A DNA stretch of 64,000 nucleotides from Escherichia phage FFH2: the sequence record KJ190158, one strand, 5' to 3'. A program made the position numbers and the translations under genes. This document shows positions 40,393-54,581 of the stretch, piece by piece. The notes under the pieces were generated by a model. It was not told the origin of the DNA and ran no database searches. It was given only the letters and a program-made list of their open reading frames with translations. Each line of letters starts with the position of its first letter. Position 1 is the first letter of the stretch.

Positions 40393-42805
40393 CACACAAT
40401 TAGCTGCCCGGCTAAAGTGCTGGAAGCACCTATAACACATCTTTCAACTAAATTTCCTACCACCACAATCACTTACCTCCCACACATGACTGTTTGCTTG
40501 TTTAGTGAGCAGTCATGCCTTGACATTCTTGCCTATCCTGATAAAATTAAGTTCTTCTCTTTTCTTTTACCGAGTAATTCGGGTTTTCTGTTCTCTTCGG
40601 TTTGAAGGGGTATAGAGATACACCTGAGTGAACAGGGTGAACAACCGAACATTTGGCTATGGCATTAGCATGGCGAAGCGGACGGGTGACGAAAGAGGGG
40701 CCGGAGGACACCAGTCACTGCCATATGATATATGGGTGATAACCTGAAGAGTCTGAATAAGTGTTTAAGTACCAGTCAGAGGAAAAGGTGAATGGTAGCC
40801 GAAGGGGGAGGGGGGTTTCTTGTATCTTTAATTTGTATATTATGTATACACTTGTAAACCAATCTCATCTGAATTTGTTTACCACACAAAGTGGATAGGG
40901 ACAAATATTACCTATTAAACTTGAATTATTTATAGAAATACCACAACACCACTTAAGTCTTTGATTTTACACACAAATCCTACAGATATTCACCCTCCAT
41001 ATTTAACATACCTGTAACATATTCCATACCCTACCTGACCGATCAATTCACCCAACTACATCCCCATATTTTCCCTGTCTGTACTACCCCTGCCCCGCCG
41101 GGAGTCCCGTCATATCTGGCTTTCCAGCAAATATCACACCCACAAATATCATTGCCTGAAGAGGGTTTCATCCCATAATACATGCCTTACCTGAAGAGCG
41201 CTTCATACACCACGTAAATTTTTTAATTGACCCCCTCCCCGCCGCCGGAGAGGTTGGCTTTTCCCACACAGACCTGAAGAGTCAGCCAGAAATATCTGAA
41301 CAGGTCCAGCTATGCCACGATTTTGTGCTTGTCCTACAGGAGTGCCTCCCTGTCAGGAGCCGGTAGCGACTGGAGTGCTGCCAGGCGGACGAAATGGGAA
41401 TCATTCTCATTCTTATAACAATTCTCAAATATCGAGGCAGTGAGGCAAATTAATAGGTGAGGCCGTTCACACAATGGCACAACATTTGCAACCTATCTTG
41501 TGGGAGTGAATGAGAATACCTATCATTGTGAGAATAGTTATCATTACGGGCAATTTAACATAATACCCATTATGCGCACCACTGGCGATCCATACAGGGA
41601 TTGATAACATGGGTTACTGTTTACACACATAACAATTATATTTCTTACTATTTGTGTGGGATATAGTTAGCAGCCGATAGATTAGATATTGACCTGTAGA
41701 CTTCCAACCGTCCAGACGTCTAAACGCCCACACAACAAGGGTTATACATACACAACTGAATGTAAACAGGGCCGCAAAAATGCTACCATACAAGCTTGTA
41801 AATTTTTCATGCAGCACTTGACAAAGAGGAGGAAAACTTGTCTGACACTTTAGACACAATAGTGACATAATATGACATAATGGTGACACTGAACATAATT
41901 GACATGCCTGACTGTTTACATAGCTAACTATTCATACAGAAATGATAAGCCATGCCATTCGTTTGCATGATAATAATTAACTTGTTTACAATAGATGACA
42001 TAATATAAAAGCAGGGCAACTATTAGAAGATCTATAGTTGCCTTGCTTGTTATGTCATGATTAACTAAATACAAGGCAACTATGATCTGATTAATAGTTT
42101 GCAGACAAACTATCACGGGGGTGATGGTTACTGCTTTTATATTATGTCGCGACTCCGTCGCGCCATGCCATTCGTTTGCATAGTTGCCTTATTGTTACAG
42201 ATAAAATAATTGTATTGTTAATTATTTCTTATCTTTCTCTTAGTCATCTAATGATTCCAGTCAGTATAGTAATGTACAGTAAACATTAGACGACTAAAGA
42301 TTTCTCTGTTTATTATAACTTACCGTGACAATTTCAGGCTGTTTACGAAAAATGTTGACACCTGGGCCGATTTATGTTATGCAGTTTACACGAATAATTA
42401 TTTTATGCAGGTATTGACTATTCCGTTATTCTATGGTTGGAATAAATACTTAGCAGACTATAGAATGGTGAGCGTACGTAAATTCTGAGATCTGGCGGCT
42501 ATAGTTATACTCGATTTTTCACGTAGAACACGCTTTTGTTAGTGTGTAAGTGTATGACTTATAAAGATTTTTAGTTGTTGACAAGATATTGAAGATGTGC
42601 ATCAGGTTAAATTTTGTGCAATAGCGGCATTACGTGCAATTTTGAGAGAGAAAACGGGTAAAAATGGCCTTGCTATCACACAATGAAAAATTATGCAATA
42701 GTTATTTTACATGTATGTTTGTACAGTGTGTGGGATTGATGGCTAGTCAATTATTCCACTTGCCAGGCTGGGCCGTTTGTGGTAGGAGAAATACAGACAA
42801 AAAGA

Positions 42806-42830
42806 AAGGGGCCTTTTAAAGCCCCTGATA
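42806..42830 (-). terminator. intrinsic terminator for the leftward block (GGGGC tttaaaag GCCCC + T-run on minus strand)
   Basis: Read directly just downstream of the stop of ORF 42845..43264. Confidence 0.55.
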
Positions 42831-42844
42831 GTTTAGTTAAGAAA

Positions 42845-43264
42845 TTATAATGATTCGTATATTTCATAGATTCGATTTGCCAGGTCGTTACGGTAGCGGA
42901 ATTTTTCCTCACGTTTGATCATCAGATCTTTAAAGCCATATTCTTTAAGCACTTCATTAACTTTATGGCGGCATACCTTCATATTATCCTGTGCGTCACC
43001 AATAAACCTGTTGCTATGGTGCATGGCTTTAATTTCTTCTTCCAGGACCAGAGCAACTATGCGGACCGGATCAAGCTGATAGGCGGTAACATCCATGCGG
43101 CATTGTAAACGACTTTTTACGTCTGCCACCGGATATACTGCAACCTCTTCCCCGTCAACATTGACAATAATTAGTTTACCATCGATTTCGAATCCTTTCG
43201 CCGCCGGACCGTGACAAAAAGCGTTATCAAAGCTATATGCCGGATTATTAGATTTAATGTTCAT
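42845..43264 (-). CDS. hypothetical protein (139 aa)
   Basis: AAGAGG SD; promoter TTGACA-17-TATATT upstream. Confidence 0.45.
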   Translation of the reverse strand: MNIKSNNPAYSFDNAFCHGPAAKGFEIDGKLIIVNVDGEEVAVYPVADVKSRLQCRMDVTAYQLDPVRIVALVLEEEIKAMHHSNRFIGDAQDNMKVCRHKVNEVLKEYGFKDLMIKREEKFRYRNDLANRIYEIYESL

Positions 43265-44007: not shown

Positions 44008-44218
44008 AATGTTTTCCTCTCTTCTGGTTGTTGTGTGGGCACTTTTGCCCCTTCAAGATAAATGTTACCCCACCCCCTGGCAGATGTCAACGGTTTTTAT
44101 AGTTCTTATATGACAGGCAGGCCCGGTGATTGTCTCCCCCCGTCGCCAGGTGCCTGCCGTTGAATAAGTATAACAAAAAACAGGACCATTGCAAGCCCTG
44201 TTTTCTAGTCAATAAGGA

Positions 44219-53058: not shown

Positions 53059-53235
53059 TTAGTTAAAATTATTTTTTGGGCGGAATTCTCCAGCCGCCGC
53101 CCCTGCCAGGTTAACCATCATTTTTTCGTACTCTTCTTTATATTCCAACGCTCCCGCTATAGCCTTTTCAACCAGGGCGATAGCCTCAGCGTCATTAATA
53201 GCTACATTTTCCAGGGGGATCATATTACCTTTCAT
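53059..53235 (-). CDS. small protein (58 aa), below ORF-track cutoff
   Basis: GAGGAGG SD; Ala-rich. Confidence 0.3.
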   Translation of the reverse strand: MKGNMIPLENVAINDAEAIALVEKAIAGALEYKEEYEKMMVNLAGAAAGEFRPKNNFN

Positions 53236-53394
53236 TTTTGTACCTCCTCTTCAATTGTTACCTATCCTATAGCATAGGCCCACCAGGTTTACAAGCCTTC
53301 ATTCTCTCCTACCTGGTCAGTTAGGTCCTGCCAGGCTGGCCCCACTAGGTTGCAGCGGTTAGTGCATCAGGTTAGAAAAATTTTTTGAAAAGTG

Positions 53395-53520
53395 TTGACA
53401 GCGGCCCCGCCAGGTGGCACAATATACCTATCGAAAGGACGGCAGGCACCGGTGACGGGGGAGACAACCACCGGGGATGGGCGCTGCATAAAATGAGAAC
53501 GGTTATCATTATCATTTAAA
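53395..53520 (+). ncRNA. candidate small RNA unit 1 (promoter, GC hairpin with GGGAGACAACCACCGG, then GAGAACGGTTATCATT tail)
   Basis: TTGACA at 53395; shares hairpin and tail motifs with unit 2. Confidence 0.3.
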
Positions 53521-53538
53521 AATTTATGCAAAAAATCC

Positions 53539-53660
53539 TTGCTTTCTTTGTCCTGTGTGATACTATAATAACAAGCCGGGGCAACAGGGGCCGGGAGACA
53601 ATCACCGGGCCTGCCCGTTATTCTGCAAACGAGAATGATTATCATTCAAAATTCTAAATG
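53539..53660 (+). ncRNA. candidate small RNA unit 2 (TTGCTT ... TATAAT, GGGAGACAATCACCGG hairpin, GAGAATGATTATCATT tail)
   Basis: Tandem to unit 1 in a non-coding island. Confidence 0.3.
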
Positions 53661-53762
53661 AGAACTCCTCGCATTTAATAAATTTAATTAGCACGCTAAT
53701 TACACTCCGTAACAATTTACTATAAAATAGTATCCACTAAAATATTCCCATATAGAAATTTT

Positions 53763-53950
53763 AAAAATCCATTTCTGAAAACGAAAAATCGATTTCGTCC
53801 CTAAAAATTTCAGGCCTAGATCCGGAACGATTTCCAGAAAATCCGATTCAGAAAACGAAAAACAGATCGAGTACTGAGAAATTTATCGAGAAAAATTTTC
53901 AGAAAATCCAAGCCCTGAAATGAAAAGTAGATCGAGTACCTGGAAAGCTG
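53763..53950. repeat. three degenerate tandem direct repeats (about 65 bp each; core AGAAAATCC ... CTGAAAACGAAAA ... GATCGAGTAC)
   Basis: Read directly; inverted partial copies at 54112-54215. Confidence 0.55.
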
Positions 53951-54251
53951 CACCGCAACTTCAAGATAGTGGTTAGATTGTTACCATAGAAGGTCAAGGG
54001 TAAGTGGAGGAAGTTCTAGTAGAGGGAGGTTAGCATGTGTGGGAAATCTATAATGGTGGCCTGGAATATAGTGCAAACGATAGGATGAGTTATTCAGCTT
54101 GTCGCGCCTACTCTGAAAAATCCATTTTAGTTTTCGATCCATTTTCTGATTTTCTAAGAATTTTAAAATATCCGGCCCGGTGAAATATCAAAAGGAGGAA
54201 ATCCATTTTAGAAATCCCCCTTATACTTGATATGCCAGGAATTTTCAAGTA

Positions 54252-54581
54252 TCAGCTGTCTTTGTTTTTAGGTTTGTACATGCGCAGAGGTATGGTCTTT
54301 GTAACATTCCATTTCCTCAACCCTTCCCAGCTCCAGTTGTGGGCGTGATACCCGGTTATGCATGCACTGCTGGCGTGATCATAAGCATAAGAGAACGCTA
54401 TGTGCACCAGGTGGGGCCAGTCCTTCCACGGCTGTGGACCGTAAGCCTTTCTCCAACACCGACACAAACTAATTGTCTCAAGAATAGGGAGAATAACAAT
54501 TCCATATACCACCACCAGAATGGTCAGTGCAATGATTGTCAGGAACACATACCCTGCAGTTGAAATGATGATCTCTGTCAT
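54252..54581 (-). CDS. membrane protein (109 aa)
   Basis: Two hydrophobic helices. Confidence 0.4.
   Translation of the reverse strand: MTEIIISTAGYVFLTIIALTILVVVYGIVILPILETISLCRCWRKAYGPQPWKDWPHLVHIAFSYAYDHASSACITGYHAHNWSWEGLRKWNVTKTIPLRMYKPKNKDS

Follow-up and report, generated by a model that had tools for sequence, protein, structure and literature searches.

Among transcription-activated phage origins, the primary origin of T7 has an AT-rich region downstream of two tandem promoters (1.1A and 1.1B), and oriF and oriG of T4 each combine a promoter with a downstream unwinding element. Iteron-type origins (lambda ori, P1 oriR, plasmid iterons) are built of repeats with a period of about 19-22 bp. 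At the RNA level, 5' stem-loops, e.g. that of the ompA leader, stabilize bacterial and phage mRNAs. The use by a phage of the operator of a host regulator is a known device. In T5, the "injection stop signal" (Repeat Region 3 in the left terminal repeat) contains conserved untranslated repeats, palindromes and DnaA boxes (bioRxiv 10.1101/866236); a comparative preprint on this region describes the palindromes and DnaA boxes, with Fur unmentioned (10.1101/866236). Here we analyze an island of about 1 kb, between positions 53236 and 54251 of a 64,000-nucleotide stretch of the genome of Escherichia phage FFH2 (sequence record KJ190158; the whole stretch is hereafter referred to as the window), in which promoters, hairpins, Fur-box-like operators and direct repeats are found side by side.

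Sequence comparison assigns the window to an rV5-like myovirus (Vequintavirus): the island with its flanks is 98% identical to that of Escherichia phage EdH4 and 96-97% identical to those of rV5-type phages. Phages of this kind are widely used and studied as broad-host-range candidates for therapy and biocontrol. The island may bear on their origin and early regulation; the paper on the rV5 genome could not locate the replication origin by skew and annotates open reading frames (ORFs) in the island (PMC3606486).

We propose, with a probability of roughly 0.45, that the island is a Fur-gated set of rightward non-coding promoters reading into an origin-like repeat array. The best reading of its sequence, in general terms, is that of a conserved untranslated control region of rV5-like phages, and comparisons across the subfamily place it among the most conserved non-coding segments. 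A conserved Fur-operator array in a non-coding promoter/repeat island of a lytic phage would be a new form of this device, in which a phage uses the operator of a host regulator; a literature search returned no report of the island, of Vequintavirus transcriptomes or of Fur boxes in virulent phages, although absence there is no proof. The island contains two tandem rightward modules (units 1 and 2), oriented opposite to the surrounding leftward early genes. Its elements, with the strand given where one applies, are the following.

53331-53394, plus strand: upstream block; its end, immediately before P1, is an A/T-rich UP-like tract, AGAAAAATTTTTTGAAAAGTG
53395-53423, plus strand: P1, a sigma-70-type promoter, TTGACA-17-CACAAT, with TG extension and GC-rich spacer (10/12)
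53442-53487, plus strand: stem-loop of unit 1 with loop motif GGGAGACAACCACCGG; minimum free energy (MFE) -20.1 kcal/mol, z -3.0
53489-53519: Fur-box-like operator 1; best 19-mer at 53495-53513, minus strand, GATAATGATAACCGTTCTC
53515-53569, plus strand: P2 with UP-like tract AAAAATTTATGCAAAAAATCC; TTGCTT (53539-53544), 16 nt, TGaTACTAT, or TATAAT at 53564-53569
53579-53616, plus strand: stem-loop of unit 2 with loop GGGAGACAATCACCGG; MFE -21.6, z -1.84
53617-53649: Fur-box-like operator 2; overlapping 19-mers at 53625-53643 (plus) and 53631-53649 (minus), offset by 6 bp
53650-53800: AT-rich trough, 26-36% GC in 100-nt windows compared to 42-43% for the genome
53656-53676: degenerate third palindrome, AAATGAGAACTCCTCGCATTT; differs from the palindrome pattern at 3 positions and matches the Fur consensus at about 9/19
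53688-53716, plus strand: candidate P3, TTAGCA-17-AACAAT, preceded by AATAAATTTAA
53746-53807, 53820-53881 and 53885-53946, plus strand: three direct repeats (family D1) of about 62 nt, 61-73% identical, spacings 74 and 65 nt
53947-54115: hypervariable spacer, with many substitutions and 1-2-nt indels among 8 genomes; annotated ORF lengths differ between records
54116-54215: right conserved block, with AAATCCATTTT twice (54118, 54199), GATCCATTTTCTG and an inverted partial repeat copy at 54148-54164

The tails of the two units (53491-53523 and 53627-53659) are 73% alike and form direct-repeat family D4. A common tail had been pointed out in a preliminary description of the window, and its presence is borne out by this identity. 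That description offered a small-RNA locus, an origin with iterons and a packaging site as options for the island, rightly treating none of them as established, and it overlooked that the conserved tail GAGAAyGrTTATCATT, read as DNA, is a Fur-box consensus. Operator 1 matches GATAATGATAATCATTATC at 16 of 19 positions and is the sole match with three or fewer mismatches in the 64 kb (0.06 expected); the box of rV5 unit 1 reaches 17/19. The two 19-mers of operator 2 score 14/19 and 15/19, the minus-strand 15/19 site being TTGAATGATAATCATTCTC. When operators of E. coli K-12 were scored alike, ryhB and fepD-entS gave 16, entC-fepB 15, fhuA 14 and fepA-fes 13 out of 19. A run of 16 identical nucleotides, ATAATCATTCTCGTTT, is common to operator 2 and the E. 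coli fhuA operator. Operator 2 also resembles the ryhB operator, with which relatives of the phage have an identical run of 15 nt, AATGAGAATGATTAT. Both the ryhB and the fhuA operators are shifted by Fur in gel shifts (PMC2189734), and a passage of the same paper reports 6-bp spacing for clusters of Fur sites, with 6 (or 3) bp as the criterion. Pairs of sites offset by 6 bp occur in the window (53625/53631) and in relatives (1526/1532, 1535/1541, 1598/1604 and 1656/1662).

In nine relatives from other genera, every site scoring at least 14/19 (21 of 21) was found in a 241-bp slot that follows the hairpin; the 25.4 kb outside it contained none. It is the Fur box, not the hairpin, that is conserved at 82-89% out to phiTE, GAP31, CR8, Mydo and Klebsiella phages; the hosts of the compared phages are Escherichia, Klebsiella, Cronobacter, Salmonella, Pectobacterium, Proteus and Pantoea. 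The degenerate third palindrome of the window sits where box 2 lies in other genera, and the homologous box of GAP31 is AAATGAGAATGCTTCTCATTC. As far as sequence can tell, the unit tails match the Fur-operator consensus at the level of experimentally bound operators, and the boxes probably bind Fur. The likeness to E. coli Fur operators (GATAATGATAATCATTATC; ryhB, fhuA, entC-fepB) comprises scores of 15-17/19, identical runs of 15-16 nt, 6-bp overlaps and extended hexamer arrays. Unlike the E. coli operators, the phage boxes are located in the genome of a virulent phage, apparently off the core promoters and with no iron-related gene nearby. A minus-strand TTGAAT-18-CAGAAT overlaps box 2 and was considered as a Fur-overlapped promoter reading into the hairpin; this candidate was rejected, since other genera do not preserve it as a promoter.

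Operator 1 immediately precedes the UP-like tract of P2, and operator 2 that of candidate P3, the next rightward promoter in each case; the predicted start of P2 is about 57-75 nt downstream of operator 1. Candidate P3 in turn faces the AT-rich trough and the repeat array. P1 is the only plus-strand promoter match of its quality in the region and is invariant in 8 Vequintavirus genomes except for one spacer substitution in Gotham. The block that precedes it (53331-53394) is nearly invariant in these genomes, and A+T makes up 82% of the last 22 nt before P1, in line with the other early promoters of the phage. P2 scores 8/12 in the window, below the threshold of the promoter scan, and has one variable base in the 8 genomes. 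In other genera the P2 slot is filled, at a fixed offset, by TTGCAA, TTGATC or TTGACC with TATATT, TATTAT or GATAAT (9-10/12) and unrelated spacers. P3 scores 8-9/12 at the same offset in 6 of 9 Vequintavirus sequences, another hexamer pair having scored higher in the window and in EdH4; the P3 hexamers are conserved in the 8-genome alignment, and in other genera TTGACA or TTGACT promoters come after the last box, following a AAAAATTT tract. That hexamers stay fixed in position while spacers vary across genera supports rightward transcription. P1 and P2 are likely to be active rightward promoters. The preliminary description had assigned a sigma-70-like promoter to each unit; this applies well to P1 (10/12 with TG extension), while P2 is present but weaker than was implied (8/12).

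Other genera carry P1-type promoters with GC-dyad spacers at the same position. The 17-nt spacers of these promoters are inverted repeats rich in GC, and their two arms vary in concert from genus to genus, for example GCCCGGCgaaaGCTGGGC, AGCCCagggatcGGGCT and ACCCAGCgcaaGCTGGGT; the spacers are located at 53401-53417 in the window and at 1297-1314, 1349-1365, 1307-1323 and 1280-1296 in related loci L002, L006, L007 and L011, respectively. A palindrome, TTAGCAyGCTAA (53688-53699), which overlaps the -35 element of candidate P3, is conserved in 8 Vequintavirus genomes, and T5-like phages have similar palindromes, TTAGCCTGCTAA and TTAGCAGGCTAA, either side of a Fur-like box.

The order of elements was compared in phiTE, GAP31, Mydo, ESCO13, ABPH49, F5M2A, SSE121, KpS11 and W70. 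A layout of UP-like tract, sigma-70 promoter, 5' GC hairpin, Fur box, next promoter, AT-rich trough and 3-6 repeats is common to Vequintavirinae and Phapecoctavirus. Outside the rV5-type phages the steps are, from left to right:

1: rightward P1, often with a small rightward gene before it
2: conserved RNA-like segment
3: direct repeat of TGTAAAGA
4: P2
5: GC hairpin with loop GAGACAAWCACC and 3' arm CTGCCCGYY
6: one to five Fur-like boxes
7: AAAAATTT tract, then another promoter, P3
8: direct repeats, three to six in number, period 63-76 bp

What takes the place of the first RNA-like segment in rV5-type phages is unit 1, a second module of hairpin plus box.

Two of these steps are absent from the window. 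The RNA-like segment driven by P1 in other genera is a conserved stretch of about 90 nt, CGCCACCCCACGGCGAAAAGGCGGGGCTAAC...ACCrGG...CCwGGTyGGAAGGTGGATCGCCGG (L002 1320-1420; L003, L004 and L011 1310-1410; L006 1375-1470). Its RNAalifold consensus has 16 pairs, two of them with compensatory changes, and it has no Rfam match; the segment may be a new structured RNA, and GCCGGTAGCTCG, at its 3' end, is similar to the ops element (9/12). The direct repeat TGTAAAGA-N2-3-TGTAAAGA stands immediately upstream of the P2 -35 element in most non-Vequintavirus genera (L002 1425-1450, L003 1415-1440, L004 1413-1438, L006 1488-1512 and relatives) and may be a regulator site.

Downstream of the promoters, the repeats share the core AAAATCC..GAAAAyGAAAA..GATCGAGTAC, and exact GATCGAGTAC is found only in this array, which is nearly invariant in 8 Vequintavirus genomes. 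The three degenerate direct repeats of about 65 bp noted in the preliminary description were thus recovered at 53746-53946, as were the inverted partial copies that it placed at about 54112-54215: the segment 54148-54164 is 88% complementary to 53892-53908, and direct copies of AAATCCATTTT are present in addition. The right block is essentially invariant in 8 genomes, with variable positions only at 54174-54182; it holds inverted pairs I1 and I16 and direct families D2 and D5, and exact copies of its motifs are unique to the island. Five other genera have 3-6 direct repeats with a 63-76-bp period, arrays being present in GAP31, ABPH49, W70 and phiTE. The core differs by lineage: GATCGAGTAC in this window, CGATCGAGAACC in GAP31, Mydo and ABPH49, TGATCGAGACCC in phiTE and AACCTCTCAAGTTC in W70. 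A lineage-specific core is the pattern expected from a co-evolving phage DNA-binding protein, and conservation of the repeat array and the AT-rich trough in every genus examined keeps an origin-like reading alive. That the repeat region is itself the replication origin is a tentative suggestion from its sequence, and the odds are against it.

As in the transcription-activated origins of T7 and T4, the tandem promoters of the island face an AT-rich trough. Unlike in T7 and T4, they are host sigma-70 promoters, with Fur-like operators and an array of 63-76-bp repeats interposed. The rV5 replisome includes a T7-gp4-like primase-helicase (PMC3606486). Like iteron origins, the island has direct repeats with a lineage-specific core beside an AT-rich stretch; unlike them, it has a period of 63-76 bp, three copies plus an inverted partial copy, and no adjacent initiator gene identified.

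Between repeats 2 and 3 there is a perfect match, at 53880-53889 on the minus strand, to TCGATAAATT, the high-affinity nucleation motif of H-NS. An H-NS nucleation role was rejected, as matches to the motif with at most one mismatch are not enriched in the window (9 found compared to 5.65 expected).

In the mechanism that we propose, host RNA polymerase would make rightward non-coding transcripts early in infection, and 5' hairpins would stabilize them, as at the other early transcripts of the phage. The operators come after one hairpin and before the next UP-like tract. Fe2+-Fur bound there would block read-through from the upstream promoter, deny the following promoter its UP contact, or do both. 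How much transcription runs rightward into the array of repeats would thus depend on the iron status of the host or on the availability of Fur. The array would be bound by a phage protein and would most likely be an origin-like organizing site activated by the rightward transcription.

Several observations weigh against this proposal. The operators do not appear to occupy a core promoter, the usual position for repression by Fur, and lie at about +45 to +80 of one start and about -55 to -75 of the next. The departure of the phage palindrome from the consensus is symmetric (GAGAAT...ATTCTC), so another protein, perhaps one encoded by the phage, could be its ligand. Judged by their match to the consensus, P2 and P3 are weak promoters in the window (8-9/12). 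As regards the origin in particular, a consensus scan of the island revealed no DnaA or IHF sites, nor any Fis-like ones. GC skew is uninformative, since it tracks transcription direction and marks the convergent junction near 40 kb. No initiator is apparent next to the array, where the flanking proteins are without known domains, and a period of 63-76 bp is unusual for iterons. In other genera a conserved gene of about 270 codons abuts the repeat array (phrog_12959, phrog_12463; no Pfam domain; all on the minus strand, L003 2107-2931, L002 2161-2997, L004 2116-2931, L011 2102-2920), and no homologue of it was found in the 64-kb window; its product of about 270 amino acids (aa) is a candidate repeat-binding protein that may be missing or replaced in rV5-type phages. 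Finally, a second, larger repeat-rich ORF-free region, 40600-42845 (2.2 kb), is located between convergent gene blocks and corresponds to the rV5 "non-coding" box; it is a candidate alternative origin or a terminator region. Of the preliminary suggestion of an origin with iterons, then, the conserved repeat array and the AT-rich trough stand, while the initiator gene, the DnaA/IHF sites and a typical period are missing.

The 2.2-kb region contains further Fur-like palindromes (41394-41411, 41510-41526 and 41528-41545) and many repeats, e.g. GACATAATATAAAAGCAG with its complement at a distance of 116 nt, and AAGCAGGGCAACTAT/ATAGTTGCCTTGCTT.

Should Fur bind the operators, a strictly lytic phage would be reading or manipulating the iron sensor of its host. 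Were this true, the performance of such phages in gut or blood could be affected, because iron limitation is normal there, and a concrete candidate ligand would be available for the palindromes of the T5 injection-stop region. In T5-like Escherichia phage chee24 (L014 3090-3700, end of the left terminal repeat), a GC hairpin is followed by AATTCTCA and then by ATGAGAATGATTCTCAT. The region contains at least four Fur-like sites scoring at least 14/19, including the 6-bp pairs 3513/3519, 3617/3623 and 3658/3664, as well as two perfect DnaA boxes (3413, 3474) and TTAGCnnGCTAA palindromes. The island resembles the T5 injection-stop region in its hairpin-AATTCTCA-box module and in its Fur-like cluster with 6-bp offsets. 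Both regions are large, untranslated, conserved and dense in repeats and palindromes, and the T5 one carries sites for a DNA-binding protein of the host, DnaA. It differs in phage family, in the terminal-repeat location of the T5 region and in the lack of DnaA boxes in the rV5-type island, and the sequences are not alignable overall. We know of no two-step injection in rV5-like phages. A broader proposal is that conserved Fur-operator clusters occur in the large non-coding control regions of virulent phages of enterobacteria from at least two unrelated lineages (rV5-like and T5-like), either as an iron-status switch gating non-coding transcription into a replication-organizing array or as a decoy that would draw Fur off the host chromosome, with derepression of iron uptake and RyhB during infection; we put it forward as speculation and would not expect it to hold.

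The foremost alternative to Fur-gated promoters is a true small-RNA locus, in which P1 and P2 would make short stable trans-acting RNAs (about 50 nt to the hairpin end, or 90-130 nt with the tail), the tail serving as a seed that pairs with host transcripts containing transcribed Fur boxes, for example the fhuA 5' leader. Conservation of the promoters fits such a locus, as does that of the loop motif GAGACAAWCACC, with its three genome copies. There are exactly three copies of the 16-nt motif GGGAGACAAYCACCGG in the 64 kb (53459 and 53593 on the plus strand, 44123 on the minus strand; 0.05 expected from shuffles), in line with the preliminary description, which had seen it in both units and once on the opposite strand. 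The third copy comprises:

44194-44167, minus strand: promoter TTGCAA-16-TATACT; the next promoter, TTGACA-17-TAACAT, starts at 44090
44158-44112, minus strand: stem-loop with loop GGGAGACAATCACCGG; MFE -23.8, z -2.4

This copy (44112-44194, minus strand) is also present in rV5. It has no Fur box, i.e. it is a hairpin without the tail, which speaks against an RNA whose tail is the seed. The spacer of its promoter is the stem of the preceding terminator.

A 5' hairpin as such is also what a small-RNA locus would share with stable early transcripts of this phage. The leftward early promoters on the minus strand at 44090, 45938, 49764, 51631 and 52302 have an A/T-rich upstream tract and TTGACA; within about 10 nt a short GC hairpin follows (e.g. 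GGCGGGAAAACTTCCCGCC), and then a CACAACAAAGAGG-type leader with a ribosome-binding site. From these sequences, a 5'-hairpin cap looks like the house style of early transcripts of the phage. The stem-loop of each unit begins about 10-19 nt past the predicted start site. Like ompA-type leaders, the island thus has a GC hairpin a few nucleotides past the predicted start, as at the five other early promoters in the window; unlike them, its hairpin is larger, with a conserved loop, and neither a ribosome-binding site nor a gene comes after it. Units 1 and 2 and the third copy are larger variants of the hairpin with a conserved loop, and no gene follows them in the island. Since promoter-proximal hairpins are usual at early promoters, they support real rightward transcripts but not membership in a small-RNA family.

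The structural evidence goes against small RNAs. Every homolog can form a hairpin closing on the conserved 3' arm, which in unit 2 is CTGCCCG and is conserved across genera, but the 5' arms pair in different registers. A covariance check across related phages had been suggested in the preliminary description; RNAalifold on a MAFFT alignment of the relatives returned the box palindrome only, with no consensus GC hairpin and no compensatory pairs in it. The z-scores of folding are modest: those of the window range from -1.8 to -3.0, those of relatives from +0.2 to -3.9. Energies and G·U pairs revealed no strand preference of the hairpin, the plus strand folding better in 8 of 16 sequences. No intrinsic terminator was called on either strand between 52800 and 54700, where the hairpins run into YYATTCT rather than a U-run. 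Searches of Rfam 15 were negative, at gathering thresholds for the window and with E up to 1 for four related loci; scans for tRNA and tmRNA likewise found nothing, and no meaningful match to the units was detected among 5,426 E. coli genomes. Sixteen nucleotides of the fhuA promoter-leader region can pair with the plus-strand tail, as a seed would require, but this complementarity is automatic because both are Fur boxes. On this evidence a classic small-RNA locus, one of the preliminary options, is unlikely, and we regard the units as cis-acting promoter-operator modules rather than classic trans-acting small-RNA genes, to judge from their sequence features.

More doubtful still is a Fur sponge: clustered high-affinity operators (2-5 per island and others in the genome), multiplied by phage replication, would titrate host Fur, derepressing iron uptake and RyhB for iron-dependent phage enzymes, and it would be incidental where the boxes stand with respect to promoters. 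In its favor, an established assay (FURTA) uses multicopy Fur boxes to titrate Fur; the number of boxes ranges from 1 to 5 among genera, and no regulated gene is apparent; and more boxes are present in the 2.2-kb non-coding region, with a similar cluster in the terminal-repeat non-coding region of T5-like phages. Yet the geometry, box after hairpin and before the next UP-like tract, is fixed across genera, which argues for a local role in cis.

Lower again in our estimate is the possibility that the palindromes serve a phage-encoded or other regulator and resemble Fur boxes by coincidence. The symmetric deviation from the E. coli consensus noted above (GAGAAT/ATTCTC) would be explained, and at least one phage transcriptional regulator is annotated (rV5 gp153); but the same deviation is seen in the E. 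coli ryhB, fhuA and entC operators, and 6-bp phasing is typical of Fur. In addition, the palindrome ATGARAATGATTMTCATT is present in at least 120 viral-contig stretches, mostly with unrelated flanks and including T5-like phages, in which it stands at the end of the left terminal repeat; this spread counts against a private phage regulator.

It is very improbable that the hairpins are bidirectional insulators or terminators separating early leftward units, the repeats being neutral or structural DNA. A terminator is annotated at the hairpin in phiTE, the hairpin in other genera stands between a rightward small gene and leftward genes, and it has no strand bias; there is, however, no U-tract and no terminator call, and near-perfect conservation of promoters, loop motif, boxes and repeats amid freely varying spacers would be left unexplained. 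Least probable of all is a packaging (pac) site, an option of the preliminary description that found no support: P1 pac has GATC-containing repeats, which GATC in the repeats here recalls, but GATC is not enriched (8 counted compared to 11.9 expected) and is absent from the W70 repeat core, and the island is in an early-gene block, even if phiTE is a generalized transducer (PMC3475682). A pseudo-ToxI of phiTE was rejected as an island counterpart: it is at 106.7 kb in phiTE, away from the homologous island, and its sequence is unrelated.

No ORF is conserved across the island. The alignment of 8 Vequintavirus genomes (87-98% identical overall) contains three nearly invariant blocks in the island:

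53331-53700: units and boxes
53760-53940: repeats
54116-54215: right block

The segment 53240-53330 is variable, with deletions of up to 48 nt among these genomes. The coding candidate annotated across the units is rV5 ORF198 (92 aa; 53367-53645, minus strand). It has no Shine-Dalgarno sequence, and its ATG falls inside a Fur-like box; the frame is broken in EdH4 by one additional A, FV3, ECP32 and Aya have 1-4-nt indels near the ORF end, and no counterpart was found in other genera. The coding interpretation (rV5 ORF198/199, phrog_14993) was rejected because of the frameshift, the terminal indels, the missing Shine-Dalgarno sequence and annotations disagreeing between records, and the preliminary statement that about 1 kb lacks a credible ORF holds. 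ORF198, ORF199 and their PHROG family are most likely propagated annotation artefacts, judging by these sequence features. ORFs annotated in the island in rV5, FV3, Gotham, EdH4 and others (phrog_14993; 53367-53645 and 53981-54142 in the window, both minus strand) are inconsistent between records and broken by indels.

The genes either side of the island (53059-53235 and 54252-54581) are both on the minus strand and belong to PHROGs without assigned function. The leftward early block around the island is transcription unit "10-1-238-164" of the rV5 paper (PMC3606486).

Seventeen unannotated records labeled "Campylobacter jejuni phage" are 97-100% identical to the coliphage island. Among them are GenBank MG065635, MG065644, MG065646, MG065647 and MG065659, which are the records of phages C12, A147, D1, D# and C5. 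Given this identity, these records are probably mislabeled or contaminant rV5-like genomes.

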